DNA of 15,982 nt from Bdellovibrionia bacterium (lineage in GTDB: Bacteria; Bdellovibrionota; UBA1018): assembly GCA_045805065.1 (NCBI GenBank), contig JBJMMA010000205.1, positions 1-15,982 on the forward strand, in the 5' to 3' direction. This document shows positions 1 to 14,071 of this stretch, in pieces. Positions within the stretch are counted from its first letter, which is position 1. Each line of letters starts with the position of its first letter. The notes beneath the pieces are model-generated. The model was not told where the DNA came from. It was given only the letters and a program-made list of their open reading frames with translations, and ran no database searches. The position numbers and the translations under genes are program-made.

Positions 1-90
1 AATGATGCGATGAGCGTGAGCTGCATAGCAGCCCGCTTGGATTCATGGCTGTTCGCTCAGGCGGCACGGGCACGCGCATTGTATGTTCAA

Positions 91-1953
91 ATGACTCTTC
101 AACAGCACGTCAGCTCAAGTCGATCCGATATTCATCCCAATCCACAATTTCGCCGCCCCGAGTGGCAGTCCCTGAACGGGCCCTGGCGATTTGCTTATGA
201 CGACAGAATGGAGTTTCATATTCCTTCTGAAGTAAAGGCATGGACTCATACGATCGAAGTGCCGTTTGCTCCAGAAGCTCAACTGAGCGGCATTGGCGAT
301 CAGAGCTTTCATCGCTGTTGCTGGTATCAAAGAGAGTTCTCAGCCAATGCTGGCGATGGTTTGATGATGGTGCACTTTGGAGCGGTGGATTATTCGTGCC
401 GTGTCTGGGTGAACGATCACTTTGTGGGTTCGCACGAAGGGGGCCACTCCCCGTTTACTTTTGATATCACGCCCTATCTGAATGATGGAGATCAACAGAC
501 CATCACGGTCTGCGCGAATGACGATCCCGCGGATTTAGCCAAGCCAAGAGGAAAGCAAGACTGGCAACTCGAGCCGCACAGTATCTGGTATCCTCGCACG
601 ACAGGCATCTGGCAAACGGTCTGGCTTGAAAGAGTTCCAAAAGTTTATATCGATCGCATCCGCTGGACGCCGCATCTGGAGCGCTGGGAGATTGGATGCG
701 AGACTCATATTTCGGGTGCGACAAACCCTAAGGATCGGCTTGAGCTCAGGGTGAAAATGACCCAGGGGGAGCATTTGCTCGCCAACGATTCCTATCAGGT
801 GATCCTGGGTGAGGTGACGAGAAGAATAGTTCTTTCTGACCCTGGAATCGATGACTTTCGAAACGAGCTTCTCTGGAGTCCTGAAAGACCTACTCTCATT
901 CAATGCGTAGTTCAGCTCTGTAGAGAGGGTCAGGTTATTGATGAAGTTCATTCGTATACGGCTCTTCGGAGCGTGGGAGTCAGCCGCGATCGCTTCATGC
1001 TCAATGGCCGGCCTTACTATCTGAGATTGGTCCTGGACCAGGGATATTGGCCCGAGAGCTTAATGACCGCTCCAACAACCGAGGCGTTCAAAAAAGACAT
1101 CGAACTTACCAAAGCCATGGGCTTTAACGGAGTCCGAAAACATCAAAAGGTCGAGGATCCTGTCTATCTCTACTATGCGGACCTTTTCGGGCTTCTTGTC
1201 TGGGAAGAGATGCCCAGCGCGTATCGCTTCACTCATGACGCCACGGAAAGGATCATCAAGGAATGGACTGAAGTCATCGATCGCGACTACAGTCATCCTT
1301 GCATTATTACATGGGTGCCATTTAATGAATCCTGGGGTGTGCCTGACCTGGCTGAAAAGGTGGAGCATCAGTCCTGCGTTCAGGCCCTCTATCATCTGAC
1401 TCGTACGCTGGACCCAACTCGACCTGTCATCGGAAATGATGGCTGGGAGAGCACTGCAACTGACATCATCGGAATCCACGATTACGACGCCAATCCAGAG
1501 CGAATGGCAAAGCGCTACGGCCCAGAGATGACGACCGCGGATATTCTCGGGCGTCGCCGTCCCGCCGGAAGGCTACTCACGATCGAGGGTCATCCTCATC
1601 GCGGGCAACCGATTATGCTCACTGAGTTTGGCGGAATCGCATTTGCGAAAAAGGAAGGCGATCAGGAAAATCGGATGTGGGGTTACTCGGTCTCGCAATC
1701 TGTGAACGAATTCCAGACGCAGTATCAGAATCTGCTGACTGCGGTGAACCAGATCGAGTTCTTCAGCGGGTTCTGCTACACGCAGTTGACTGATACGTTC
1801 CAGGAGGTCAATGGTCTTCTTTTTCCCGATCGTACTCCAAAAGTCAGCGTGCAGGCGATCGCAGCAGCGACGCTCGGAACTGGCTTTGAGCGCGAAGAGC
1901 GTGTGGCCAATATCGTTGGAGTAAACAATCCGCTCCTTTTAGGAAATGCATGA
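91..1953 (+). CDS. Glycoside hydrolase family 2 (beta-galactosidase/glucuronidase-like, possibly beta-galactofuranosidase)
   Basis: The ORF is open from 10. ATG at 91 (MTLQQH) is preferred because the family-like sequence starts at HPNPQFRRPEWQSLNGPWRF. It has the sugar-binding domain motifs HFGAVDY and HEGG, plus RGKQ, GIWQTVWLE and LDQGYWP. The acid/base motif is WVPFNESWG and the nucleophile-type motif is LTEFGG. No signal peptide is evident. The start is uncertain. Confidence 0.92.
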   Translation: MTLQQHVSSSRSDIHPNPQFRRPEWQSLNGPWRFAYDDRMEFHIPSEVKAWTHTIEVPFAPEAQLSGIGDQSFHRCCWYQREFSANAGDGLMMVHFGAVDYSCRVWVNDHFVGSHEGGHSPFTFDITPYLNDGDQQTITVCANDDPADLAKPRGKQDWQLEPHSIWYPRTTGIWQTVWLERVPKVYIDRIRWTPHLERWEIGCETHISGATNPKDRLELRVKMTQGEHLLANDSYQVILGEVTRRIVLSDPGIDDFRNELLWSPERPTLIQCVVQLCREGQVIDEVHSYTALRSVGVSRDRFMLNGRPYYLRLVLDQGYWPESLMTAPTTEAFKKDIELTKAMGFNGVRKHQKVEDPVYLYYADLFGLLVWEEMPSAYRFTHDATERIIKEWTEVIDRDYSHPCIITWVPFNESWGVPDLAEKVEHQSCVQALYHLTRTLDPTRPVIGNDGWESTATDIIGIHDYDANPERMAKRYGPEMTTADILGRRRPAGRLLTIEGHPHRGQPIMLTEFGGIAFAKKEGDQENRMWGYSVSQSVNEFQTQYQNLLTAVNQIEFFSGFCYTQLTDTFQEVNGLLFPDRTPKVSVQAIAAATLGTGFEREERVANIVGVNNPLLLGNA

Positions 1954-3032
1954 ACGAGATTGAAACAAAACTCAAAATGATCAGGACCTTTCTTGAGCAA
2001 AGCCCATGCGCTGCCGTGCGGCTTCGTGGCGTGGATTGGTTCAGCTGGTGTACGGGTGGTGGGACCAATCGCATGCTTCTGAGCGCGGAGACGGGCGTTG
2101 CTGAAGTACTAGTGACTGAAAAAGAGGCTTGGATTCTGACGGACATCATTGAAGCTGATCGACTCAGGAATGAGCAAATTCCTGCAGGGTTTGAGATCTG
2201 GATCGGACCTTGGCAAGATTCTGATAAGCGCGAGAAATTTGTATCGGAGCTTTCCGGAAGAGCCCTGGTTGCATCAGATCGCCCTGTGGCGCATGAAAGA
2301 GCGCTTGGAAACGATCTCATTCGAGCAAAGCGTCGTTTACTTCCTGAGGAAATCGAGCGCTTCAAGCAGCTTGGACGTGATGCTGCTGAAGCCATGACAG
2401 AAGCTCTCTCGCTTGCGCAGCCAAATTGGAGCGAGTTTGAGCTCGCGGGACAGGCAAGCCTGGCGCTTCAAAAACGAGGGATTGATCCAGCATTGGTTCA
2501 AGTGGGAGGTAGCGAGCGAATCAATGCGTATCGACACCTTTTACCGACAGATAAGAAAATCGGCAACCGCGCGATGATGGCGTTTTGTGCGAGAAGGCAC
2601 GGTCTTTACGCCAGTCTCACTCGGTATGTGTTTTTTGATAAGCCTACTTTAAGTCAGCGCAGAAGCTTTGAGGATGTGGCGCAGATTGAGTGCGTCACCT
2701 TGAATGCGTCTCGTCCGGGAGCCGCACTTGATCAGATCTACCATCAACTGACCAGCGCCTACACTCAGCATGCCTATCAAAGCGAGATTAATAAACACCA
2801 TCAGGGCGGTACGACGGGATATTTAGCACGAGAAGTGATCGCTCAACCCAGTTCAAAAGAGCTGATCGAAGCCAATACCGCGATTGCATGGAATCCAAGT
2901 CTAGTGGGCGCAAAGATCGAGGATACCTTTTTATCTACGGACCAAGGTCTTGAGCTTCTGACGCTGGATTCGAACTGGCCAACTATCGAAGTCGATGGGA
3001 GAAAGCGTCCTGACATATGGGTGAGAACATGA
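1950..3032 (+). CDS. M24 (Xaa-Pro peptidase/creatinase) fold protein with degenerate metal site
   Basis: 360 aa, ATGA overlap with the GH2 stop. Pita-bread fold landmarks are LLPEEIERF, WSEFELAG, GLYASLTR, HHQGGTTGY, WNPS and KIEDT. Most metal ligands are substituted. Confidence 0.85.
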   Translation: MNEIETKLKMIRTFLEQSPCAAVRLRGVDWFSWCTGGGTNRMLLSAETGVAEVLVTEKEAWILTDIIEADRLRNEQIPAGFEIWIGPWQDSDKREKFVSELSGRALVASDRPVAHERALGNDLIRAKRRLLPEEIERFKQLGRDAAEAMTEALSLAQPNWSEFELAGQASLALQKRGIDPALVQVGGSERINAYRHLLPTDKKIGNRAMMAFCARRHGLYASLTRYVFFDKPTLSQRRSFEDVAQIECVTLNASRPGAALDQIYHQLTSAYTQHAYQSEINKHHQGGTTGYLAREVIAQPSSKELIEANTAIAWNPSLVGAKIEDTFLSTDQGLELLTLDSNWPTIEVDGRKRPDIWVRT

Positions 3033-4096
3033 AAACAGTGATTGCCAGCGCTCCAGGAAGAGTCAATCTGATTGGCGAGCATACCGATTACAATGCAGGT
3101 TTTGTTTTGCCGACGCCGATTCCACAGTCAACCCGGGTTCAATTACGCGTTCGAAATGATCGGATCATCAGTTTGAGAAGCTCTCTCAGCCCTGAAGCAT
3201 CGCAGGGAATGCAATACGAACTTGAGAGTGAAAAGCCCGGTAGAGGATGGATTGATTACGTCCAAGGGGTTACCCACATATTGCGCGCCGAAGGATTTCC
3301 TATTTCAGGCTTTGATATTCGAATTGATTCTGATGTTCCGGTTGGGAGCGGCCTCTCCTCGAGTGCAGCGCTGGAAGTTGCGCTGATGCGGGCGATCCGG
3401 GAGGCTTTCGCGCTGAACCTGGATGACGTGACGATTGCAAAGCTTGGGCAGCGCGTGGAAAACGAGTTTGTCGGCGCGCGGGTTGGAATCATGGACCAAA
3501 TGGCCTCCAGCGTCGGACGTCCTGGCGAGGCGCTCTTTCTGGATTGCAGGGATTTGTCGTATCGTCGCGTTCCATTGCCCTTCAAGAAACTGGACCTCGT
3601 AGTCATTCACTCGGGTGTGTCTCATGGACATGCTGGAGGCGAGTATAATACGCGGCGCGCTCAGTGCGAGGAAGCTTGTCGTACCCTGGGCGTGCAGAGT
3701 TTGCGCGAACTGAGTGAAGCAGACATTCCTAGAATGGAGAGTCTTTTGACAGAACGCCTCCTGCGACGTGCGCGACATGTTGTTACCGAAAATGCACGAG
3801 TGCTTCGGGCTGTTGCTGCGATTGAGTCAGGTGACGCAGAACAGCTTGGACAGCTTTTCTATGCTTCTCATAACTCGATGAGAGACGATTATGAAGTGAC
3901 TGTCCCTGAGATCGATCTTCTTGTGCAACTAGCGTCACAAGATTCGGAAGTCTTCGGTGCTCGCATGACTGGCGGCGGATTTGGCGGTTCTGTAGTGGTG
4001 TTGACCCATCCCAAACGCGGACAGGAAGTCGCGCGTCGAATTGTCAGTTCATATGATGCTGCAACAGGACGTTCTGGTTTAGCACTGGTTTCGTAG
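3029..4096 (+). CDS. galK: Galactokinase (GHMP kinase)
   Basis: Galactokinase signature APGRVNLIGEHTDYNAGFVLP, ATP motif PVGSGLSSSAA, GIMDQ and GARMTGGGFGG. ATG at 3029 overlaps the upstream TGA (ATGA). Confidence 0.95.
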   Translation: MKTVIASAPGRVNLIGEHTDYNAGFVLPTPIPQSTRVQLRVRNDRIISLRSSLSPEASQGMQYELESEKPGRGWIDYVQGVTHILRAEGFPISGFDIRIDSDVPVGSGLSSSAALEVALMRAIREAFALNLDDVTIAKLGQRVENEFVGARVGIMDQMASSVGRPGEALFLDCRDLSYRRVPLPFKKLDLVVIHSGVSHGHAGGEYNTRRAQCEEACRTLGVQSLRELSEADIPRMESLLTERLLRRARHVVTENARVLRAVAAIESGDAEQLGQLFYASHNSMRDDYEVTVPEIDLLVQLASQDSEVFGARMTGGGFGGSVVVLTHPKRGQEVARRIVSSYDAATGRSGLALVS

Positions 4097-4199: not shown

Positions 4200-5351
4200 A
4201 TGAACTCGAGACAACAACAAAAATGCGATCTGATTGTATTATCTCACCTTCGCTGGGACTTTGTCTTTCAGCGTCCGCAACATCTATTGACACGATTTGG
4301 AAAGCACACACGTGTGTTCTTTGTTGAAGAGCCGGTCTTCGACACTGAAATTCCTGGCCTCGAGGTACTACCAAGGCAGACGGGTGTTTGGCGAATCGTT
4401 CCTCATCTTCCTCAGGTGGACGACGAAGCCGCGCTTCATGATCTTCTGGGAGGCATGATCAATCGCCTGATCTCAGAACAAAGCATCGATGAGTACGCTC
4501 TTTGGTACTACACGCCAATGGCAATGCCTTTTACGCGCCATCTCACGCCATCCGCAGTCGTTTATGATTGCATGGATGAGCTTTCACTTTTCAAAGGTGC
4601 GCATCCTGAGCTCCTCAATTATGAAAACGAGCTTCTTGATCTGGCCGATATCGTATTCACAGGTGGCCATAGCCTCTATGAGTTTAAAAAGGATAGGCAT
4701 CCGAACGTTCACTCGTTCCCAAGCAGCATCGATTATCATCACTTCTTCCAGGCCCGCTCCAGCGCGATGACTGATCCAGAAGATCAGCGCAACATTCCTC
4801 GTCCTCGTATGGGATTCTTTGGCGTGATCGATGAGCGAATGGATATCAACCTTCTTGCCGGCGTCGCCAAAGCAAGGCCTGATTGGCAATTTGTGATTTT
4901 GGGACCGGTGGTGAAGATCAATCCGGACTCACTCCCCAGATATGAAAACATTCACTATCTGGGACAAAAAAGCTACGCGGAGCTGCCATCCTATATCGGC
5001 GGCTGGGATGTGGCTTTGATGCCTTTCGCCAAAAATGAGTCCACACGTTTCATCAGCCCTACGAAAACTCCCGAATACCTTGCAGCCGGAAGACCTGTGG
5101 TCTCGACGTCCATTCGTGATGTGGTTCGCCCTTACGGCGAGAATGAGCTCGTGTTCATTGCAGACACCCTAGACGACTATGTTCGTGCGATTGAGTCTGC
5201 GCTTGAACTCAAAAGTGGAAACACATCTTGGCGCGAAAAAGTGGATTCATTCCTTGCTCAAACGTCCTGGGACAAGACCTGGCATCAGATGTCAGAGCTT
5301 CTCCAGACCGCAATCACCAGGAATTCGGCGCTCAAACTCGAAGCTTCGTGA
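4200..5351 (+). CDS. GT-B fold glycosyltransferase (GT4-like, type commonly linked to glf)
   Basis: 383 aa with motifs SHLRWDFVFQRPQHL, VYDCMDELS, GFFGVIDERMD and ISPTKTPEYLAAGRPVVST. SD-like AGGGGA at 4187-4192. Confidence 0.9.
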   Translation: MNSRQQQKCDLIVLSHLRWDFVFQRPQHLLTRFGKHTRVFFVEEPVFDTEIPGLEVLPRQTGVWRIVPHLPQVDDEAALHDLLGGMINRLISEQSIDEYALWYYTPMAMPFTRHLTPSAVVYDCMDELSLFKGAHPELLNYENELLDLADIVFTGGHSLYEFKKDRHPNVHSFPSSIDYHHFFQARSSAMTDPEDQRNIPRPRMGFFGVIDERMDINLLAGVAKARPDWQFVILGPVVKINPDSLPRYENIHYLGQKSYAELPSYIGGWDVALMPFAKNESTRFISPTKTPEYLAAGRPVVSTSIRDVVRPYGENELVFIADTLDDYVRAIESALELKSGNTSWREKVDSFLAQTSWDKTWHQMSELLQTAITRNSALKLEAS

Positions 5352-5365
5352 GCAGGAACCCAAGC

Positions 5366-7627
5366 ATGAAAAAAATTGAAATCTGGGGTGGTGTCGAGTG
5401 CACATATAATCGTGTAGGCGACACTTACTTTGATCAATTGAAGTATAATGGTCATGATCACCGCATTGAGGATCTGGATCGCTTTGCTGAATACGGTTTT
5501 ACGGCATTGCGATACCCGTTCATCTGGGAGCGGATCGCCCCCAATGGCCTGAATAGCGTGGATTGGTCATGGGCCGATGCCAGGCTCAAGCGCCTTAAAG
5601 AACTCAACATTCGTCCGATCGCTGGCTTTGTGCATCACGGAAGCGGTCCAAGAGATACCAGTCTTCTGGATCCGGATTTTGGCCCTAAGCTCTCCAAGTA
5701 CGCAGCACTTTTTGCCCAACGCTATCCGTGGGTCGAGGACTACACTCCAATCAATGAACAATTCACAACCGCGCGTTTCAGTGCGCTGTACGGCGTCTGG
5801 TATCCTCACGCGAAAGATAATTTAAGCTGCTTTCGTGCTCTGATGAACGAGTGCCGGGGAACGATTCTCTCCATGCGAGAGATCAGAAAAGTAAATCCCA
5901 AGGCGCGTCTCATTCAAACTGACGATCTTGGGAAGGCTTCAGGAACTGCCATTACCCAACATCAGGTCGACTACGAGAACGAGCGGCGGTGGATCGGTTG
6001 GGATCTCTTGTGTGGTCGGGTGAACCCGGAACACTTCATGTGGAAGCATCTTTTGAACTTTGGTGTTCAGGAGCACGAGCTTCGCTGGTTTGAGGAAAAT
6101 GCTTGTCCACCCGATATTCTGGGAATCAACCACTATCCGCTCAGTAACCGTCATCTCGATGAGAGAATGGAGCGCTATCCTGCCTGGTCTCACGGTGGGA
6201 ATGGACGCGATACCTACGCGGATGTGGAGTCTGTAAGAATCGCCGACGCAAGCTTCATTTCTCCTGAGACCATCTTCCGGGAAGCCTGGCAGCGTTATCA
6301 GATTCCCATCGCCATTACTGAAGTTCACATCGATGCGGCAAGAGAAGACCAGATGCGCTGGTATCAAGAGATCTGGTCCAGTGCTCAACGATTGAATGAG
6401 GAAGGCGCCGATATCCGGGCTATCACGGCCTGGGGACTTCTTGGCCACTTTGACTGGCATTGTCTGGTCTCGCGCTGCGAAGGGTACTACGAATCCGGAG
6501 TATTTGATCTCCGTTCGCCTAAGCCACGGCCTACAGCGCTGGCGAAGATGCTTCATTCGCTGTCGACGTACCAAGAATATCAGCACCCACTTCTGAGCGT
6601 GCCTGGTTGGTGGCGTCGCCCCGATCGTATCCGGCATCCTCAGCAAGTGCCATCATTTGAGCCATCCAGCTCGGAAAGCTACGGCAATCCACTGAGCGCG
6701 AACGGTCGGCGCGCACGGCCGATTCTGATCACGGGCGCAACAGGCACACTGGGAAATGCTTTTGCGAGAATCTGCGAAAGGCGTGGAATTCCTTATCGCC
6801 TGGTCTCAAGACAACAGATGGACATCAGTGATCCGCAGAGTATTCAAAAGATGCTTGAGGCTGAAAAACCCTGGGCAGTCATCAATACGGCAGGGTACGT
6901 TCGTGTTGATCAAGCAGAGTCGGACGCCGATCGATGTTTCCGCGAGAACGTCGATGGACCTGCAAATCTTGCTCATGCATGCGCGGATCGTAACATCCGA
7001 TTTGTGCACTTCTCGTCGGATCTCGTGTTCGATGGAGAGTCTGATCGCCCTTATGTTGAGAGTAGTGCCACATCGCCACTCAGCGTTTACGGGCAAACCA
7101 AGGTGGCTTCAGAGAGCGCGGTTCTTCGGGCCCACGTTGATTCGTTGGTCATTCGAACGAGCGCATTTTTTGGCCCATGGGACGAACACAACTTCTTGCA
7201 TCATGCACTCAGTACTTTGGTCAAAGGAGCGCCATTCTACGCCGCAGCCAACGTATCGGTATCTCCGACCTATGTACCGGACTTGGTGGATACCACGCTT
7301 AATCTTCTCATCGATGGTGAGCGCGGCATCTGGCATCTGGCAAATCCAGGAGAGATCAGTTGGGCGGATTTGGCGAAAGAGGCCGCGAAAGAAGCAAAGC
7401 TTGATCCTTCAAGTGTGATCAGCCGGCCAGCAAACAGCATGGATTGGATCGCGCCTCGGCCCAAATACAGTGTTTTAGGAAGTGAGCGAGGAGTGCTCCT
7501 TCCCACCTTGGATCGCGCTCTCGCGCGTTATTTCGAAGAAAGTCAATGGAGGACACAGAGATGGCAAAGAAACGGATTGGATTCGCAGGAGCAGGATTCG
7601 CATGCGCAGTCCTCGCGCGTGAGTTAG
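5366..7627 (+). CDS. Fusion of an N-terminal GH1-like beta-glycosidase and a C-terminal RmlD-like (dTDP-4-dehydrorhamnose reductase family) SDR
   Basis: ATG at 5366 follows AGGA. The GH1-like part (~5366-6630) has LRYPFIWERI, TPINEQ (acid/base), GINHYP and ITEVH (nucleophile). The SDR part (~6716 onward) has ILITGATGTLG, INTAGYVRVDQAE, FSSDLVFDG, YGQTK (YxxxK) and SPTYVPDL. It is a single uninterrupted frame. Confidence 0.9.
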   Translation: MKKIEIWGGVECTYNRVGDTYFDQLKYNGHDHRIEDLDRFAEYGFTALRYPFIWERIAPNGLNSVDWSWADARLKRLKELNIRPIAGFVHHGSGPRDTSLLDPDFGPKLSKYAALFAQRYPWVEDYTPINEQFTTARFSALYGVWYPHAKDNLSCFRALMNECRGTILSMREIRKVNPKARLIQTDDLGKASGTAITQHQVDYENERRWIGWDLLCGRVNPEHFMWKHLLNFGVQEHELRWFEENACPPDILGINHYPLSNRHLDERMERYPAWSHGGNGRDTYADVESVRIADASFISPETIFREAWQRYQIPIAITEVHIDAAREDQMRWYQEIWSSAQRLNEEGADIRAITAWGLLGHFDWHCLVSRCEGYYESGVFDLRSPKPRPTALAKMLHSLSTYQEYQHPLLSVPGWWRRPDRIRHPQQVPSFEPSSSESYGNPLSANGRRARPILITGATGTLGNAFARICERRGIPYRLVSRQQMDISDPQSIQKMLEAEKPWAVINTAGYVRVDQAESDADRCFRENVDGPANLAHACADRNIRFVHFSSDLVFDGESDRPYVESSATSPLSVYGQTKVASESAVLRAHVDSLVIRTSAFFGPWDEHNFLHHALSTLVKGAPFYAAANVSVSPTYVPDLVDTTLNLLIDGERGIWHLANPGEISWADLAKEAAKEAKLDPSSVISRPANSMDWIAPRPKYSVLGSERGVLLPTLDRALARYFEESQWRTQRWQRNGLDSQEQDSHAQSSRVS

Positions 7628-8718
7628 CGCAAACTGGCAACTTTGAGTGCGTTGTATTTGATGAGCGAAACCATGTTGCAGGAAATTGCCACACGTCACG
7701 TGATGCCTCGACCGGAGTCATGGTGCATGAGTATGGCCCTCATATCTTCAATACGAGCCGCGAGGACGTATGGGAGTATGTGAACCGCTGGACTAAGTTC
7801 GGCCCTTACGTCAACCGAGTCAAGGCCGTGACCGAGCGTGGGGTATACTCGCTTCCAATCAATCTTCTGACGATCAATCAGTTTTTTGATAAGCGCATGA
7901 ACCCCGCGGAAGCTCGCGAGTTCATCGCATCGCTCGGAGATTCAACGATAGCCGAGCCTGAAAGCTTCGAAGAGCAGGCGCTCAAATTCGTGGGCCGTGA
8001 GCTTTATGAGAATTTTTTCCTGGGCTACACAAAAAAGCAGTGGGGTGTGGATCCTAAGCGACTTCCAGCCGCTATTTTGAAGCGCCTACCTGTTCGCTTT
8101 AATTATGATGATGGCTACTTCAATCAAAAATATCAGGGCATTCCACTCGATGGATACACTGCTATCGTCGAAAAGATCTTGGACTGCCCAGGAATCGAAG
8201 TGAAACTCGGAACCCGGTTCGATCCTAAATCTAAAGACGAATACGATCACGTTTTCTGGAGCGGCCCTCTGGATGCGTATTTTGACTATAAGCTCGGTCG
8301 TCTTGGATATCGCACGCTTGTGTTCGAAAAGCTCCGGGCAAAGGGCGACTATCAAGGCAATGCAGTCATTAATTACTGCGAAGAGAAGGTGCCTTTTACC
8401 CGCATTTCCGAGCATAAGCACTTTACGCCCTGGGAAGAGCACGAAAACACGATCTGTTTCAAGGAATTCAGCAAGCTCGCCGAGGAAGGCGATGTGCCTT
8501 ACTATCCTCTGCGCCTGAACGATGACAAAGCGATTCTTCAGGACTATGTGAGACTTGCCGAGTCTGAAGAGAAAGTTACTTTCTGCGGACGCCTGGGAAC
8601 CTATCGATATCTCGATATGCATCAGGTGATCGGAGAGTCATTGGATCTTGCTCAGATGTGCCTTCGCACAAATCTGGAAACGAGTCGCTGGCCAAGCTTC
8701 AGCGTCCGCCCGCTCTAG
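7561..8718 (+). CDS. glf: UDP-galactopyranose mutase family flavoenzyme
   Basis: FAD-binding GAGFA, RNHVAGNCH, HEYGPHIF, YTKKQWG, RLPVR, YQGIP, RISEHKHF, YYP and GRLGTYRYLDM. GGAGG at 7548-7552 supports ATG 7561, which overlaps the upstream gene by 67 nt. Confidence 0.95.
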   Translation: MAKKRIGFAGAGFACAVLARELAQTGNFECVVFDERNHVAGNCHTSRDASTGVMVHEYGPHIFNTSREDVWEYVNRWTKFGPYVNRVKAVTERGVYSLPINLLTINQFFDKRMNPAEAREFIASLGDSTIAEPESFEEQALKFVGRELYENFFLGYTKKQWGVDPKRLPAAILKRLPVRFNYDDGYFNQKYQGIPLDGYTAIVEKILDCPGIEVKLGTRFDPKSKDEYDHVFWSGPLDAYFDYKLGRLGYRTLVFEKLRAKGDYQGNAVINYCEEKVPFTRISEHKHFTPWEEHENTICFKEFSKLAEEGDVPYYPLRLNDDKAILQDYVRLAESEEKVTFCGRLGTYRYLDMHQVIGESLDLAQMCLRTNLETSRWPSFSVRPL

Positions 8719-8733
8719 AAAGGATTAAGGACC

Positions 8734-9744
8734 ATGAAGGTATTAGTTGCTGGAGGCGCCGGTTATATTGGAAGCCACGCTGTCAGGAAGCTTTTGAAAG
8801 AAGGCCATGAGGTCATTGTCCTCGATGATTTCTCTCATGGGTATCGGAGCGCCGCTGAGAATGCGGCAAGCGGACTCGAGAGACGCGCGCAAATCATCGA
8901 AGGCAATATCGCGGATCGCGCCCTTCTGACAAATGTGCTTCGCCAGAACAAGATTGAAGCGGTCATGCACTTTGCCGCTTTCATTGAGGTCGGCGAGAGC
9001 GTGGCGGATCCTGCCAAGTATTATAAGAACAACTTCTCAGGTGCGCTTGAGATGATGGAAGCCATGCGTGAAGCTGGCGTTAAGCGTCTGGTTTTCTCAT
9101 CGACTGCCGCTGTCTATGGCAATCCCAAGAAGACACCTATCACCGAGGACCAGGACCTGGCGCCAATCAATCCCTATGGTCGGTCCAAGATGATGGTTGA
9201 GCTTGCGATCGAGGACTATGCGGGCGCTTACGGATTGGGCTACGCTATCCTTCGTTATTTCAATGTTGCGGGAGCTGATCCGGATGGACTGATTGGAGAG
9301 AGCCATGAGCCTGAAAGCCATCTCATTCCAAGAATTCTGGATGCAGCCATCGGGCGCGAAAACGCGATTGGAATTTTTGGTACTGACTATCCGACAAAGG
9401 ATGGAACCTGCGTTCGCGACTATATTCACGTTGAGGATCTTGTCGAAGCTCATATCCTGGCCATGAACGCGATTGAGCCTGGGCAAGGCGACATCTTCAA
9501 TCTGGGAAGCGAAACGGGTTTCACCGTACGTGAAGTGATTGAAGCCTGCGCAAAGGTAACGGGCGTTAAGATTCCTGTTACCGAGAAACCACGAAGAGCC
9601 GGAGATCCGGCCGTTTTGGTGGCCTCAAGCGAGAAGATCAGGAACACGCTCGGATGGAAGCGCAGGTATCCTGACCTCGAGACCATTGTAAGTCATGCCT
9701 GGAACTGGCATCAAAAGCGCCGAGAGCAGAGAAAAGCCTCTTAG
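8734..9744 (+). CDS. galE: UDP-glucose 4-epimerase
   Basis: GGAGYIGSH, HFAAFIEVGESV, FSSTAAVYG, YGRSK, LRYFNVAGA, DGTCVRDYIHVEDL and RRAGDP. SD-like AAGGGA upstream. Confidence 0.96.
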   Translation: MKVLVAGGAGYIGSHAVRKLLKEGHEVIVLDDFSHGYRSAAENAASGLERRAQIIEGNIADRALLTNVLRQNKIEAVMHFAAFIEVGESVADPAKYYKNNFSGALEMMEAMREAGVKRLVFSSTAAVYGNPKKTPITEDQDLAPINPYGRSKMMVELAIEDYAGAYGLGYAILRYFNVAGADPDGLIGESHEPESHLIPRILDAAIGRENAIGIFGTDYPTKDGTCVRDYIHVEDLVEAHILAMNAIEPGQGDIFNLGSETGFTVREVIEACAKVTGVKIPVTEKPRRAGDPAVLVASSEKIRNTLGWKRRYPDLETIVSHAWNWHQKRREQRKAS

Positions 9745-10949
9745 CGAATAGATTGGGCCAAAGGCAGATTGACCCGGATGCGGTTTTGATCCTGCGTCGA
9801 TGCTTCAACCCAGATTTCCCCCTTGTGCGCGTTAATGATCTCCTTAGCCAGGCAGATCGCCAGTTTCGCGCCTCGATTGGGAAGAGACGGGCTTTTGACA
9901 AAGCGGTCAAAGAAGTGGGCAATGTCATCCGATGTGAACGGCGGACCCTGGTCTAAGATCTCGATGCAGAGATACTCAGGCGAGTTTTGCGTCTGAATGG
10001 TAATGACTTTATCTCCGTCCGACCTTCTGGCCATAACCGCAACAAGATCGTTCAAGGACTGCGTGATTCTATCACGATCGCAATTGATCAAAACCGAGTC
10101 CTCACCCACGTGAGTAATTTTAGCGTCAACCTGGTTCGCTACGGCCGTGACTTTCGTTATGACGCTGCTGATGATTTCTCGCGAGCTATAACATGCTAAG
10201 TTTAAGGGGAGGTCGCCCTTTTCTAGTTGGCTCAAGTCGCCAATATTCTGAATAATACCTTTCATGCACTCGGATGAAGTCCTTAACATGTCGAGATTTT
10301 TGTAAAGTCCGGGATTATGCACATCTTTGATCTTCTTGATGGCAAGGTAAGTATTCAGGAGATTCGTGTTGAGCAGATTTTTCAAATCGTGAATAACCAA
10401 GTCAAAGAGCTCTTCTTTTGCTGCCATCATCAATCGAAGATCAATCTCAGCCATGACAGAGTCGGCGATATCAGAGAGCAGCCCGATCTCGTCCTTATGC
10501 CAAATTCGGGGCTTGTGATCGATAACGCAGAAAGAGCCAATGCATTGTCCGTTGGACAGCAGGAGTGGCATGCCCGCGTATGCGATCACATGCAACGCGC
10601 CTACAGCGAGATTTTTCTTAACCAGCGGATGTGCTTCCGCGTCTTCGATCAAAAGAGGTTTCTGAGTATCTACGACATGTCGACAAAAGGAGTACGTGAG
10701 CGGAGTTTCTCGCATCGAAAGCCAGGGTTCGGGTAGCCCAAAGGCGCTTTTAAAGAATTGTCGCTCTCGATCGACTAGAGAAACCAAAGAGACCGGCGCG
10801 TGGATAGTTCGCGCTGCTAAGCTGGTCAGCCGCTCAAACGCTGCTTCGACCGGACCGTCTAAGAGACCCGTATTCACCAAAGCAGATAGCCGACTGGGAT
10901 TTGAGACCGAGTTTGATTTTTGAGCCTTAAGTCCACGTGCATACCCCAT
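9741..10949 (-). CDS. GAF-domain sensor histidine kinase-like protein with degenerate HATPase domain
   Basis: N-terminal GAF (RLSAL...LLD...FERLTSLAAR, SLVSLVD, SFCRHVV, AYAGMPL, IGSFCVID) and H-box HDLKNLL. The C-terminal HATPase-like region (DRDRITQ, DQGPP, FFDRF) has altered N and G2 boxes. No TM segments. The stop overlaps the galE stop. Confidence 0.85.
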   Translation of the reverse strand: MGYARGLKAQKSNSVSNPSRLSALVNTGLLDGPVEAAFERLTSLAARTIHAPVSLVSLVDRERQFFKSAFGLPEPWLSMRETPLTYSFCRHVVDTQKPLLIEDAEAHPLVKKNLAVGALHVIAYAGMPLLLSNGQCIGSFCVIDHKPRIWHKDEIGLLSDIADSVMAEIDLRLMMAAKEELFDLVIHDLKNLLNTNLLNTYLAIKKIKDVHNPGLYKNLDMLRTSSECMKGIIQNIGDLSQLEKGDLPLNLACYSSREIISSVITKVTAVANQVDAKITHVGEDSVLINCDRDRITQSLNDLVAVMARRSDGDKVITIQTQNSPEYLCIEILDQGPPFTSDDIAHFFDRFVKSPSLPNRGAKLAICLAKEIINAHKGEIWVEASTQDQNRIRVNLPLAQSIR

Positions 10950-11036: not shown

Positions 11037-11103
11037 AATGATGCGATCCGTAGCGCAGCTTTTTGCTTGCCGCCTAATGAACCTCTATGCGAGGTTCGTG
11101 GCC

Positions 11104-11703
11104 ATGATTCGTGAGCTACTGCGTGAGCACACTCAGGCATCCCATCAACGACTCGAGCACAAGCTGGACCTTCTCAAAATTGTAGACCTGAACACATATA
11201 GCCGCGTCGTCGCACGATTTTATGGCTTTGTGGAACCGTTAGAAGCAGAGCTCAGCCGAGTGTCTGCCAAGCATTCGATGGTCGGAGTATTGTTCCAAGA
11301 TGAGCGGTTGTCTTTTGCTGAGCGAATGAAGACTCAATGGCTCAAAGCGGATCTAGACTATTTATCACGCCGTCTAGGTGCTTCCTGCAAAGCTTTAGAA
11401 AAGGCGCCTCATTCTGCTCTTCCTTGTTTTAGATCTCCTGCCTCCGTTTTGGGATGTCTATATGTCATGGAGGGATCTACTCTTGGCGGGCAGTTCCTCA
11501 GCGCACATTTTGAAAAGTCCTTAGGTTTGAACTCTGAAGCAGGCTTGAGCTATTTCTCTGGCTATGGCGCTCAGACTGGAAAGATGTGGAGAAGCTTCTT
11601 GTCCTTTTTGGAAGAGCACGCTCAACGTTATCCTGAGTGGACAGATGAGATTCTATCCTCGGCGAACGAAACCTTCGAAAAAATGGAAAATTGGCTGACG
11701 TAA
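11104..11703 (+). CDS. Biliverdin-producing heme oxygenase (BphO/HemO-like)
   Basis: Proximal His motif LREHTQASHQRLE, signature GCLYVMEGSTLGG, YFSGYG..TGKMWRSF and C-terminal ANETF. Start 11104 (GAGG upstream) fits the family length. Alternative starts at 11038/11041 have a strong AGGAGGT. Confidence 0.9.
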   Translation: MIRELLREHTQASHQRLEHKLDLLKIVDLNTYSRVVARFYGFVEPLEAELSRVSAKHSMVGVLFQDERLSFAERMKTQWLKADLDYLSRRLGASCKALEKAPHSALPCFRSPASVLGCLYVMEGSTLGGQFLSAHFEKSLGLNSEAGLSYFSGYGAQTGKMWRSFLSFLEEHAQRYPEWTDEILSSANETFEKMENWLT

Positions 11704-11854: not shown

Positions 11855-12382
11855 ATGACGGCGCCACTCATCCAACGTTTTATTGATGCACTTCATAAGA
11901 CTGATCAGTCCCGTGATACCCAGCAAATGGTGGATCTGTTCGCGGATCATTGCGAGATCAGCAATGTCGCGATTAAGCCGATGAGCGGAAAAAAAGGCGT
12001 GGAGCGATTCTGGAACGACTACTGCGCGACTTTCAAGGACGTTAAGACAAACTTCACTCGTGTTTCAGAATCAGACGGCAAAGCCATCCTGGAGTGGGTT
12101 TCAGAAGGAGTGCTTCAGTCAGGCCGTCCGATTGTTTATGAGGGAGTCACTATTCTGGAATGGAGCAACGGGGACCACATCGAGCGATTTAAGGCTTATC
12201 ATGATTCCGCGGCCTTTCTGAAAGAGGGAGGAAAGCATGCTGATGTCACCTCACATGAATCCAACGTGCATCCGATCTCAACGAATAAGGTCATGGAAGG
12301 CGGACCCAAGCGGGATGTCTCAACGCCTGGTGAAGGAGTTCTGACTAGTAGTTTAAAAGATCGTGACGCTGCGACTGGGTGA
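11855..12382 (+). CDS. SnoaL-like / NTF2-family protein
   Basis: 175 aa with the NTF2-like pattern FIDAL...MVDLFAD...GKKGVERFW..Y...F, AILEW.SEG, YEGVTILE and IERFKAYHD. It ends in a ~50 aa polar tail. SD GAGGA upstream. Confidence 0.85.
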   Translation: MTAPLIQRFIDALHKTDQSRDTQQMVDLFADHCEISNVAIKPMSGKKGVERFWNDYCATFKDVKTNFTRVSESDGKAILEWVSEGVLQSGRPIVYEGVTILEWSNGDHIERFKAYHDSAAFLKEGGKHADVTSHESNVHPISTNKVMEGGPKRDVSTPGEGVLTSSLKDRDAATG

Positions 12383-13643
12383 CAGGGACGCGGCTTACGA
12401 CAGGCTCAGTGACGTAAATCCGGCTGAAGCTCAGGGCGAATAGCAGCATGAAGCCGATGAGCTGTGATGAGTTCCACGGCTCAGGCAGCATGATCGGATA
12501 AGCGGCAATTCCTTGCACCTGAATGATTCCGGCAGGGAAATACATCAGCACCAATGATGTGATGGCACATATGCGTCGCCATCCAGGTTGCATCGCTTCC
12601 CAAAGAACCCAGCCCCACACAGGACAAAGAAAGAGTGCCCAGTGCTCCCAGGCGACTGGACTGAATACCAACAGCCAGCTGATAAGAAGTGCGGCCGCAG
12701 CCAGCATATTGATCGGGGTTTGAGCTTCCTTAGGTCTGAGTCGAACAAGCCCGAAAACGACGCAAGTCAGTGCCGCGATCCGAAGATTACTCAGAATTTC
12801 CGAGAGAAACGGCGTCAATGGGCGGCCGTAGGCGCGAGCCAGCATGCCCGCAAGTGTTTGATTGCCTAAGTAAGCCGAAGGACGTGACAAGGTCGGCATG
12901 ATGATGCGGACGTATTCGTAGAATGGCCTTGTGCCCGCAATCAACACAGTAACCGCAAGTATAACTTCCCCCAGTGCCACGCTCCATGCGATCAGACGCC
13001 AACGTCTTGTGACGATAAGCAAGGGTGCAAGCACGAGCGTCGCGTATTTGAGGAGAATGCCCATCACCAAGGCAAGCCCGCCCCGGTAAGTCTGATCGCG
13101 CAGCAGCGCACGCAATAAAATAGCGATACAGAGCGCAATAAAAGGTGTGACGTTCGCAATCCGGATTGATCGGGCAGTCATGGGCGAAAGAACAATGAGC
13201 AGCATCAGGAGGCCTTCCCAGCGGGAGGGCTTTCCAAGAACTTCACGGAGCAGCTCGGCCGAAATCCACGCAACTCCTAAAACGGAAGCAGAAAGCAAAA
13301 GCGTCCAGATCCAGAACGCTTGGACATAAGTCAGAAAAGAGAGCGGAACGAAAGCAAGAGCCGATGGAGGCGGTAGGATAAAGTGAGTGTAATCAGGAGC
13401 GCCTCTTCTTGCGCTCATGAGTACCCAATCGTTCTTGCCGTTGGAGTGCAGCCCTGCATTATCGAGGCTGCCTCTCCAGGGAGTGGGATAAAGGGCATTC
13501 CAATTTCCCATGCCGACGAGAGCTCCACCTGTATAAAACTGACTGAAATCCGGAATGGTAGGACGAAGAATCAATCCTGCCGGGACGGTGACGCTGAGCC
13601 AAAAAAGCGCAATAGTGAAGCAAGTTCGATTGAAGCGAGTCAT
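12345..13643 (-). CDS. GT87 / DUF2029 family membrane glycosyltransferase (GT-C fold)
   Basis: Many hydrophobic segments, with DFSQFY after TM1, FILPPPSALAFVPLS, LLKY, NQTL and SPVAWEHW. The start at 13643 (MTRFN) lies just downstream of the gtrA stop. The longer ORF start at 13781 overlaps gtrA. Confidence 0.8.
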   Translation of the reverse strand: MTRFNRTCFTIALFWLSVTVPAGLILRPTIPDFSQFYTGGALVGMGNWNALYPTPWRGSLDNAGLHSNGKNDWVLMSARRGAPDYTHFILPPPSALAFVPLSFLTYVQAFWIWTLLLSASVLGVAWISAELLREVLGKPSRWEGLLMLLIVLSPMTARSIRIANVTPFIALCIAILLRALLRDQTYRGGLALVMGILLKYATLVLAPLLIVTRRWRLIAWSVALGEVILAVTVLIAGTRPFYEYVRIIMPTLSRPSAYLGNQTLAGMLARAYGRPLTPFLSEILSNLRIAALTCVVFGLVRLRPKEAQTPINMLAAAALLISWLLVFSPVAWEHWALFLCPVWGWVLWEAMQPGWRRICAITSLVLMYFPAGIIQVQGIAAYPIMLPEPWNSSQLIGFMLLFALSFSRIYVTEPVVSRVPVTQSQRHDLLNY

Positions 13644-13663
13644 ACGTGCTGCCTTCAGATTGT

Positions 13664-14071
13664 CTATTGTAGGGCGAAGACGAACTTCTTTCGCATCCCG
13701 AAATTCCAGATCAGAACAAGAAACAGCGCGATAATCTTTCCAAGCATCACGGGGGTCTTGGCCATATCGACCGTCGCCCACATAATGAACTCGGTCAGAA
13801 CCAGGCCTCCCGCGCCGATGAGAGCAAACAGGATCATCTCCTGCCTGTAACGCCCATTGCTCTCAAAAACCCAGGCGATGCTGATGAAGTAATTGACGAG
13901 CAGTCCCAGAAAAAAACCGAGCGCGGCTGCGATCAAATGATTCACCCCGAGGCGCACGCTCAAAAAATAGAGGGTCCCTGCGTCGAATGCAGCCGCCAAT
14001 CCGCCAACAAAAAGGTAGCGTAAGAACTGCAAGGCCGTGCTCTGAGTTTTGCCGATGAATAGGTGTTTCAT
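13664..14071 (-). CDS. GtrA family protein (putative polyprenyl-P-sugar flippase)
   Basis: 135 aa, four hydrophobic helices, with QFLRYLFVGG, NYFISIAWVF and WNFGMRKKFVF. Confidence 0.9.
   Translation of the reverse strand: MKHLFIGKTQSTALQFLRYLFVGGLAAAFDAGTLYFLSVRLGVNHLIAAALGFFLGLLVNYFISIAWVFESNGRYRQEMILFALIGAGGLVLTEFIMWATVDMAKTPVMLGKIIALFLVLIWNFGMRKKFVFALQ

Follow-up and report, generated by a model that had tools for sequence, protein, structure and literature searches.

An M24-fold protein with a lost metal site, encoded beside galactose and arabinose genes, as a candidate mutarotase for free furanoses

What might a protein with the fold of an Xaa-Pro peptidase be doing between a glycosidase and a galactokinase, when most of the residues that would hold its metals have been replaced? 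The question is raised by a stretch of 15,982 nucleotides from a Bdellovibrionia bacterium (Bdellovibrionota, UBA1018; contig JBJMMA010000205.1 of assembly GCA_045805065.1), the whole of which is called the window below. The genes on its plus strand run in the order GH2 glycosidase, M24L, galK, GT4 glycosyltransferase, GH1-like/RmlD-like fusion, glf and galE, and the protein in question is the product of M24L. We propose that it is cytoplasmic and probably metal-independent, and we would give an even chance to its being a mutarotase-type enzyme on a new fold that acts on free galacto- and arabino-aldoses, most likely in the direction from furanose to pyranose.

The fold itself is clear. An AlphaFold2 model of M24L (pLDDT 93.9, pTM 0.91) has the two domains of the M24B group, a pita-bread domain and an N-terminal domain of the creatinase/prolidase type, and its best Foldseek matches in the PDB are YpdF, prolidases, creatinases, EutD/DoeA and DddP (TM 0.74-0.79 over about 360 columns); with the Spt16 domains that are also matched, the range is 0.65-0.79. 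An earlier sequence-only reading of the window had assigned the M24 fold, and the model agrees with it. At the sequence level the relationship is much fainter: PF00557 is the sole Pfam match and a weak one (E 3.3e-11, 43.8 bits against a cut-off of 23, residues 137-330), PF01321 is not detected in M24L and is detected in its relatives P0191 and P0202, and the PepQ equivalog NF040821 scores 20.4 bits, below its cut-off of 630.

M24B peptidases bind their metals through five ligands (Asp, Asp, His, Glu, Glu), and this set is not intact in M24L. The motifs on which the earlier reading had relied are all present in the open reading frame, at residues 210-225 (MAFCARRHGLYASLTR), 283-287 (HHQGG), 293-295 (ARE), 314-317 (WNPS) and 322-325 (KIED). 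Alignment by HMMER with the Deinococcus radiodurans prolidase 5giu/5cdl (E 6.4e-7) puts A211 and S222 in place of the two Asp residues, G287 in place of the ligand His of GHG, R294 in place of the substrate-binding His of HE/HD (His361) and E324 at the last Glu (riED), with a 5-residue deletion near W314-N315, in the region of the iEPG Glu, where the register is uncertain by 1-2 residues. When the family profile is aligned by hhalign with a genuine M24 protein of locus L144, S222 again falls on the second Asp and E324 on the last Glu, and N315 falls on the Glu of iE(P/L)G, in agreement with the earlier reading; hhalign also opens a 6-residue gap that places H284 under the ligand His, and that position is ambiguous. 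The gapless HMMER register agrees with the modelled strand 286-289. The claim that four of the five ligands are lost thus stands for A211, S222 and N315, with E324 kept, while the fourth, G287, is the ambiguous one, and the loss could be three of five if H284 fills the place of the ligand His. The gene and the residues concerned lie in the window as follows:

1950..3032, plus strand: M24L (P0001), M24B-fold protein of 360 aa
2580..2582, plus strand: A211, at the position of the first ligand Asp (HMMER with 5giu)
2613..2615, plus strand: S222, at the position of the second ligand Asp, Asn in most relatives (HMMER, hhalign)
2796..2810, plus strand: HHQGG (283-287), with G287 at the ligand-His position if the register is gapless (HMMER, hhalign)
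2829..2831, plus strand: R294, which replaces the substrate-binding His of HE/HD (HMMER)
2889..2900, plus strand: WNPS (314-317), with N315 at the position of the ligand Glu of iEPG (hhalign)
2913..2924, plus strand: KIED (322-325), with E324 the only metal-ligand residue kept (HMMER, hhalign)

The replacements are shared by a large family. A word-indexed search in which 8000 candidates were scored gave 1264 proteins at E<=1e-3; the best 120 listed relatives are 50-81% identical to M24L, with E-values down to 1e-130, and nearly every named one among them goes under 'M24 family metallopeptidase' or 'Xaa-Pro aminopeptidase', with a few listed as 'hypothetical protein'. An exhaustive profile search over clusters at 50% identity returned 3737 at E<=1e-3, 1658 at 1e-10 and 815 at 1e-30, and the names given in the ESM Atlas are the generic 'M24 family metallopeptidase' only. 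Members come from cyanobacteria, Myxococcota, Chloroflexota, Armatimonadota, Planctomycetota and Verrucomicrobiota. In an alignment of 30 close relatives, C213, R215, H284, Q285, G286, G287, Y291, R294, N315, P316, S317, K322, E324 and D325 are invariant (30/30). A second alignment, of 28 members at 32-46% identity, keeps the signature YRHP (R195, H196), HHQGGxxGYxxR and AWNPSxxGxKxEDT, with Q285 and G286 invariant and H283, H284, G287 and R294 conserved in at least 90%, together with W33, G37, E68, R71, E75, W88 and D110 in the N-terminal domain. Conservation of HHQGG and WNPS across homologs, which the earlier reading had wanted examined, is therefore borne out; C213 and R215 are invariant among close relatives only and are lost in the wider set. 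C213 was considered as a catalytic nucleophile and dropped, since A, G, M or S stands in its place in the wider set.

With E-values of homologues down to 1e-130 and no variation of the substitutions among 30 of 30 relatives, the loss of ligands goes far beyond chance. Down to 32% identity, some 20 polar residues of the former active site hardly vary, the pocket residues being R195, H196, H283, H284, Q285, Y291, R294, W314, N315, S317, K322, E324 and D325, and such invariant or near-invariant replacements are what a working pocket would show rather than a decayed peptidase. This pattern indicates a family in which a conserved polar pocket, with a chemistry of its own, appears to have taken the place of the dimetal site, and from the loss of ligands M24L is probably metal-independent. 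Literature searches, judged from listings and abstracts and with subscription literature outside their coverage, gave nothing on the family.

Could M24L nevertheless be a genuine Xaa-Pro peptidase with an alternative metal site? It has the M24B fold and a PF00557 score above the cut-off, a single metal might in principle be held by E324, D325, H283, H284 and H196, and the hhalign alignment pairs H284 with the ligand His. Against this, conserved non-ligand residues have taken the place of three or four of the five ligands, the PepQ score falls very far short, the family is consistently placed in sugar operons, and locus L144 has, besides its M24L gene, a separate genuine M24 peptidase (PF00557, 132 bits). 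Peptidase activity is thus very unlikely, to the point that we give it next to no weight, and the label 'M24 metallopeptidase' is probably wrong, as the sequence-only reading had suspected.

What the pocket might act on is best approached through gene neighbourhoods. As a core set we took the 80 best loci in species-representative genomes, mostly from cyanobacteria, with others from Myxococcota, Chloroflexota, Oligoflexus and Rubricoccaceae, and searched them by tblastn within 7 kb with the window proteins and the Oligoflexus GalT. Matches to galT were found in 51 loci, galK in 44, GH2 in 36 (35 at 60-68% identity and one at 32%), glf in 15, the GH1-RmlD fusion in 12, GT4 in 9 and galE in 3; a UDPGP domain lies in 7. 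At least one of these galactose-type genes is present in 71 of the 80 loci, so that the linkage of homologs to sugar genes on which the earlier reading had staked its case is found. The nine loci that lack any of them include short contigs and contig edges and have uninformative neighbours; L037 was first scored without a galactose match, and a UDPGP gene was then found adjoining. Gene order is also conserved: galK lies on the same strand and no more than 400 nt downstream of M24L in 30 of the 75 loci that leave space for the gene, galT has its end no more than 1 kb upstream of M24L in 39/68, and the order GH2-galT-M24L-galK is repeated in Nostoc (cyanobacteria), Oligoflexus and Rubricoccaceae. 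What stands between GH2 and M24L in Oligoflexus and Nostoc scores as a true galT on TIGR00209 (168-170 bits; cut-off 102).

In Myxococcota the linkage has gone as far as fusion, with seven proteins of about 740 aa that join a UDPGP domain (PF01704) to M24L. The UDPGP domain is fused to M24L or lies directly upstream of it in L004, L005, L007, L010 and L015 and is adjacent in L006 and L037, and its PDB relatives are the eukaryote-type UDP-glucose and UDP-GlcNAc pyrophosphorylases. These arrangements allow a different reading, in which M24L is a non-catalytic sugar-binding protein that regulates, scaffolds or channels the uridylyl-transfer step to galactose 1-phosphate (Gal-1-P) or the kinase. 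Ebp1/PA2G4 and the N-domain of Spt16 are non-catalytic M24 folds, and Spt16 domains are among the Foldseek matches; the fusion occurs in seven proteins, the tightest neighbours are galT or UDPGP (58/80 loci) and galK (44/80), and loss of M24L is tolerated in one genome, G106, described below. Some 20 near-invariant polar residues at 32% identity are nonetheless typical of catalysis, and arabinose operons that hold M24L without GalT, UDPGP or GalK make a partner-specific regulator unlikely; we rate this reading as rather improbable.

Gene content points in the same direction as gene order. Across 201 genomes from the phylum of the Nostoc genome G001 (18 with M24L, 183 without; the p-values ignore phylogeny), the counts are:

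galK: 18/18 genomes with M24L, 39/183 without, Fisher p 1.5e-11
galT: 17/18 with, 48/183 without, Fisher p 1.3e-8
glf: 16/18 with, 53/183 without, Fisher p 8.5e-7
GH2 orthologue: 15/18 with (one broken by TAA stops), 2/183 without, Fisher p 6.8e-18

The broken orthologue (G168:C173:4220-5573) has three TAA stops in two matched pieces and is probably a pseudogene of that M24L-bearing cyanobacterium. Two genomes have the GH2 gene and no M24L. One, G106, carries galK, an SBF-family transporter, galT and GH2 (L084; G106:C42:40500-50000), with a gene-poor stretch of about 1 kb at the expected place of M24L, which suggests loss or rearrangement; the contig of the other, G184, breaks off 370 nt past galT.

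The slot that M24L occupies, between sugar release or uptake and the first cytoplasmic enzyme (GalK or AraA), is also that of aldose 1-epimerases of the GalM family, and at the level of the locus the two exclude each other. A profile built from ten PF01263 matches and run against six-frame translations of 160 M24L loci (E<=1e-3; the ten inputs were matched by construction) found a GalM-family gene in none of the 160. In the cyanobacterial sample above, none of the 18 genomes with M24L has PF01263 at 5 kb or less from galK, as against 13 of the 39 galK-bearing genomes without it (p 0.005), and M24L abuts galK in 9 of the 18. M24L itself matches only PF00557 in Pfam and is not a member of PF01263, so that it would be at most a functional analogue of GalM. 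In Shewanella, an ara cluster with the YtfQ-like transporter AraUVWZ is reported to carry 'AraM', a GalM-family arabinose mutarotase (PMC2996990), and the place of AraM there is, by analogy, the slot of M24L in Chloroflexota.

That the sugar may arrive as a furanose is suggested by two kinds of neighbour. The best PDB relatives of the window GH2 are 7xyr (E 1.3e-92) and 7sf2 (E 1.5e-81), it matches the Streptomyces JHA19 beta-D-galactofuranosidase 9j6n/9j6m at E 3e-64, and the classical beta-galactosidases and beta-glucuronidases follow at 1e-17 to 1e-25. It contains the strings FNES and TEFGG, which we take to be the acid/base and nucleophile motifs of GH2. In what the sources consulted say of these enzymes, 7XYR (GH2_19) and 9J6M (GH2_18) fall in the sole GH2 group with furanosidase activities (PMC12243196), and 7XYR and 7SF2 are structural neighbours of Galf-ase (PMC11627007). 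The window GH2 thus belongs to the furanosidase clade (GH2 group III) and is probably a cytoplasmic beta-D-galactofuranosidase; orthologues at 59-68% identity accompany M24L in other phyla. The second neighbour is a transporter. Binding proteins encoded beside M24L in Vitiosangium (L002, E 2.9e-99) and Chloroflexota (L160, E 5.7e-78) have GafA/YtfQ as top matches (5ocp, 2vk2, 6hbd), and GafA-like genes occur in 9 of the 160 loci (L002, L004, L005, L015, L139, L141, L144, L152 and L160). Proteins of this type are described as binding L-arabinofuranose and D-galactofuranose (PMC10191376); the main text of that paper does not use the word 'mutarotase', and its passages on transport do not address the fate of the free furanose. 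Phrase searches of the literature for a furanose, arabinofuranose or galactofuranose mutarotase returned no such enzyme among their hits.

The more distant members of the family place M24L with another sugar. A set of 80 loci was gathered by means of aligned distant relatives (Armatimonadota, Chloroflexota, Planctomycetota, Verrucomicrobiota and others), and 26 of these loci carry at least one of the sugar query genes: AraA in 11, a Zn-dehydrogenase in 11, an FGGY kinase in 8, a sugar ABC permease in 4, a fucose-isomerase-like gene in 4 and GH51 in 3; in six Armatimonadota loci galK lies immediately upstream of M24L. The complete L-arabinose operons with M24L are from Chloroflexota and read:

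L160: LacI, GafA-type binding protein, ATPase, two permeases, M24L, Zn-dehydrogenase, AraB, AraD, AraA
L131: AraA, M24L, Zn-dehydrogenase, AraB, AraD
L153: AraA, M24L, AraB, AraD
L144: LacI, AraA, GH51 arabinofuranosidase, M24L, AraB

M24L as a replacement for AraD is ruled out by the class II aldolase (AraD) genes in the same operons. The Zn-dehydrogenase (ADH_N, ADH_zinc_N, Glu_dehyd_C) stands directly 3' of M24L in nine Chloroflexota loci (L112, L119, L120, L122, L131, L135, L141, L142 and L160), in arabinose operons already equipped with AraA, AraB and AraD; polyol use and sugar 1-dehydrogenation are candidate roles for it.

Since the arabinose route has neither a sugar 1-phosphate nor a UDP-sugar, the metabolite common to the galactose and arabinose contexts would be the free aldose, D-galactose or L-arabinose, which is often delivered as a furanose. 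The same consideration decides against a substrate among the phosphorylated or nucleotide sugars of the Leloir route (Gal-1-P, Galf-1-P or UDP-Gal). Such a substrate is what the UDPGP fusion and the adjacency of galT would suggest, and several invariant Arg and Lys residues would suit it, yet the same motifs are found inside AraA/AraB/AraD operons; it was set aside, and we consider it very improbable. The core of the sequence-only reading is largely upheld. It had also allowed for a sugar-amine intermediate; for this, or for a sugar-amino-acid conjugate, we find no support, the family being present in operons of the L-arabinose isomerase pathway, where no such conjugate occurs. Among the assays listed in that reading was galactose ring-form interconversion, and it is this function that the comparative evidence favours.

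Under the mutarotase proposal, the upstream GH2 would release beta-D-galactofuranose, and M24L would catalyse the opening of its hemiacetal ring and the re-closure. The H283/H284 pair and E324 (or D325) could serve as general acid and base, and W314, N315, S317, Q285, Y291, R195, R294 and K322 could hold the sugar hydroxyls, roles that we infer from the position of these residues within the M24 pocket. Alpha-D-galactopyranose, on which the translationally coupled GalK acts, would thereby form faster, and Gal-1-P would be turned into UDP-Gal and fed back into the adjoining glf/GT4 galactofuranose pathway. Distant members would play the corresponding part with L-arabinofuranose, at the step before AraA. 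A broader claim, that furanosidases and Gaf-type transporters have in this family their missing partner in the cytoplasm, and that it is the first dedicated enzyme for converting D-galactofuranose and L-arabinofuranose to the pyranose, on a metal-free pita-bread fold, is one that we hold tentatively and would not ourselves bet on.

Several points weigh against the proposal that M24L is a mutarotase. We infer the substrate, the reaction and the residue roles, the reaction by elimination. The catalytic pita-bread enzymes among the Foldseek matches are all hydrolases or a lyase, to our knowledge there is no isomerase precedent on this fold, and several of the invariant Arg and Lys residues would equally suit an anionic substrate. 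Spontaneous conversion of furanose to pyranose is fairly fast, which makes the physiological benefit uncertain, and G106, which has GH2, galT and galK without M24L, shows that M24L is dispensable there. A genome-wide anticorrelation of GalM and M24L was looked for and not found, and the local, operon-level exclusion alone holds: a PF01263 paralogue is present elsewhere in all 18 M24L-bearing genomes of the Nostoc phylum (most score weakly, at 105-131 bits, but G001 has one with a strong 312 bits), and among 151 Chloroflexota genomes PF01263 occurs in 7/29 with M24L and 35/122 without, a total of 42 positives in which the 35 include the unpublished genome G350, used nowhere else. In the distant set, 54 of the 80 loci have none of the sugar queries, some have unrelated neighbours (SMC, LeuA, Ham1, TilS), and AraA and M24L are adjacent in one of the six genomes that hold both among those 151. 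A distant member, P0191 (666 aa), is a fusion of prephenate dehydratase, ACT and M24L (PDT-ACT-M24L), a context at odds with the sugar reading; it may reflect an artefact of gene calling, or the family may be put to another use there.

A rival reading is a metal-free hydrolase, in the manner of creatinase or EutD, that acts on a small derivative of these sugars, for example a D-galactono- or L-arabinono-1,4-lactonase or a hydrolase of glycosylamines or sugar conjugates. The chemistry of the catalytic fold relatives is in its favour, a carboxylate product would sit well with the invariant Arg and Lys residues, and the Zn-dehydrogenase-like gene 3' of M24L (nine Chloroflexota loci; 11/80 by tblastn) could make a lactone. 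The core loci, with GH2-galT-M24L-galK or the UDPGP fusion, are however without the dehydrogenase, dehydratase and aldolase of an oxidative route, the Chloroflexota operons hold the full isomerase route AraA/AraB/AraD, and no amino-acid or amine-handling gene recurs beside the family. We therefore regard a hydrolase as unlikely, though deserving of attention, and retain ring interconversion of free aldoses as the preferred reading.

In the window, the neighbours of M24L are the following:

10..1953, plus strand: GH2 glycosidase, with GH2 N-terminal, middle and TIM-barrel domains in Pfam
3029..4096, plus strand: galK, galactokinase, alternative ATG at 3017, with GalKase_gal_bdg and GHMP N and C domains in Pfam
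4200..5351, plus strand: GT4 (TuaH-like) glycosyltransferase, by domain and family profile matches
5228..7627, plus strand: GH1-like/RmlD-like fusion, 799 aa (PF00232 weak, E 5e-8; PF04321 E 2e-63)
7546..8718, plus strand: glf, UDP-galactopyranose mutase (PF03275 E 4.4e-77)
8734..9744, plus strand: galE, UDP-glucose 4-epimerase (TIGR01179, 451.7 bits against a cut-off of 262.3)

M24L overlaps both adjoining genes by ATGA, as had been noted from the sequence: the GH2 stop and the M24L start share 1950-1953, and the M24L stop shares 3029-3032 with the galK ATG at 3029, although an in-frame ATG at 3017 would make the latter overlap 16 nt instead. The kinase is well supported (TIGR00131, 310.3 bits against 226.65), and glf is slightly below the cut-off of its equivalog (TIGR00031, 289.5 bits against 303.75). 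The contig begins within or just 5' of GH2, whose first ATG is at 10; its real start may be the ATG at 91, because similarity to solved GH2 enzymes starts at about residue 41. Anything 5' of GH2, such as galT or a regulator, lies outside the assembled contig. The GH1-RmlD fusion is kept beside glf/GT4 in 12 of the 80 core loci, at 51-58% identity (cyanobacteria, Myxococcota and Oligoflexus); its true start is probably further downstream, because the 5' end of the frame overlaps the GT4 gene. In Nostocales, GT4 and Glf form a single protein of 816 aa (L085:988-3438, minus strand, in G184), with further GT4-Glf frames of 819-873 aa in G001, G034, G100, G055 and G106, and because of this fusion to UDP-galactopyranose mutase the window GT4 is probably a galactofuranosyltransferase.

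With glf adjoining and GT4 fused to Glf in Nostocales, the window is most simply read as encoding both the synthesis of a galactofuranoside (galE, glf, GT4) and its recycling (GH2, M24L, galK). The gene set thus looks like salvage beside galactofuranose biosynthesis rather than the plain catabolic arm proposed by the sequence-only reading. The source genome (94% complete) has no galT (PF01087), no GalM (PF01263) and no orthologue of the myxobacterial UDPGP. It does encode two UDPGP-family proteins of 650 and 604 aa (C172:5387-6316 and C219:3676-4431; L082, L083), about the size that we take UDP-sugar pyrophosphorylases to have, and this pair may supply the step from Gal-1-P to UDP-Gal.

Further along the window, a GAF-domain histidine kinase (9741..10949, minus strand) and a heme oxygenase (11038..11703, plus strand) form a divergent pair reminiscent of bacteriophytochrome operons, GAF being the sole domain detected. 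A GT87-family membrane glycosyltransferase (12345..13781, minus strand; PF09594 E 2.7e-23) lies a few kb from the galactofuranose genes; the GT87 family is best known for mycobacterial mannosyltransferases.

The first consequence concerns annotation, as the 815 clusters (50% identity, E<=1e-30) are probably mislabelled as metallopeptidases. Both galactofuranose and arabinofuranose count among the main constituents of glycans in microbes and plants. Furanosidases are known, as are transporters specific for furanoses, and the M24L family offers a testable candidate for the handling of the free furanose. If the mutarotase proposal is true, a dimetal peptidase scaffold has been rebuilt into a metal-free sugar-handling site, and the family would be a new mutarotase/pyranase family and the first isomerase of the M24 superfamily.

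Among known systems, prolidase and aminopeptidase P (5GIU/5CDL; E. coli YpdF, 5CNX) have the two-domain architecture in common with M24L (TM 0.75-0.79), and enzymes of this kind are its only sequence-level matches in the PDB (E 6e-7; the family profile gives 1e-10). M24L shares with them the last Glu and, of the three His positions that bind substrate, two (H196, H283). Unlike prolidase, M24L has A211, S or N222, G287 and N315 for ligands and R294 for His361, its loop past the EPG position is 5 residues shorter, and it is found in sugar operons and not in peptide contexts. The non-peptidase enzymes creatinase (1CHM, 1KP0, 7YTO) and EutD/DoeA (6TWJ) have an M24L-like two-domain fold (TM 0.74-0.78), so that creatinase and the ectoine hydrolase, which the earlier reading had put forward as precedents for repurposing of the fold, are indeed fold neighbours by Foldseek; for its third precedent, agropine synthase, the papers listed by a literature search made no mention of agropine. 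Creatinase works without metals, with a His as general base. Neither gives a PDB sequence match to M24L at E<=1 or to the family profile at E<=0.01. M24L differs from both in its gal/ara neighbours, with no creatine or ectoine genes nearby, in its own motifs (HHQGG, AWNPS, YRHP) and in a predicted isomerisation as opposed to C-N hydrolysis.

GalM/AraM (PF01263) is like M24L in its slot between sugar delivery and GalK/AraA in gal/ara operons, although the fold is unrelated, there is no homology, and both families coexist in many genomes; GalM interconverts pyranose anomers, and a furanose role is not described in the passages on GalM/AraM. For the UDPGP::M24L fusions, the comparable case is yeast Gal10p, an epimerase-mutarotase fusion in which a mutarotase is joined to a nucleotide-sugar enzyme of the same pathway; this is analogy only, as both halves are different domains. 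RbsD (D-ribose pyranase) and FucU are the known enzymes that convert a free sugar between pyranose and furanose before its kinase acts. They have a different, small fold, act on different sugars and serve the opposite direction (pyranose to furanose for ribokinase), and they are the closest functional analogy to the reaction proposed for M24L.

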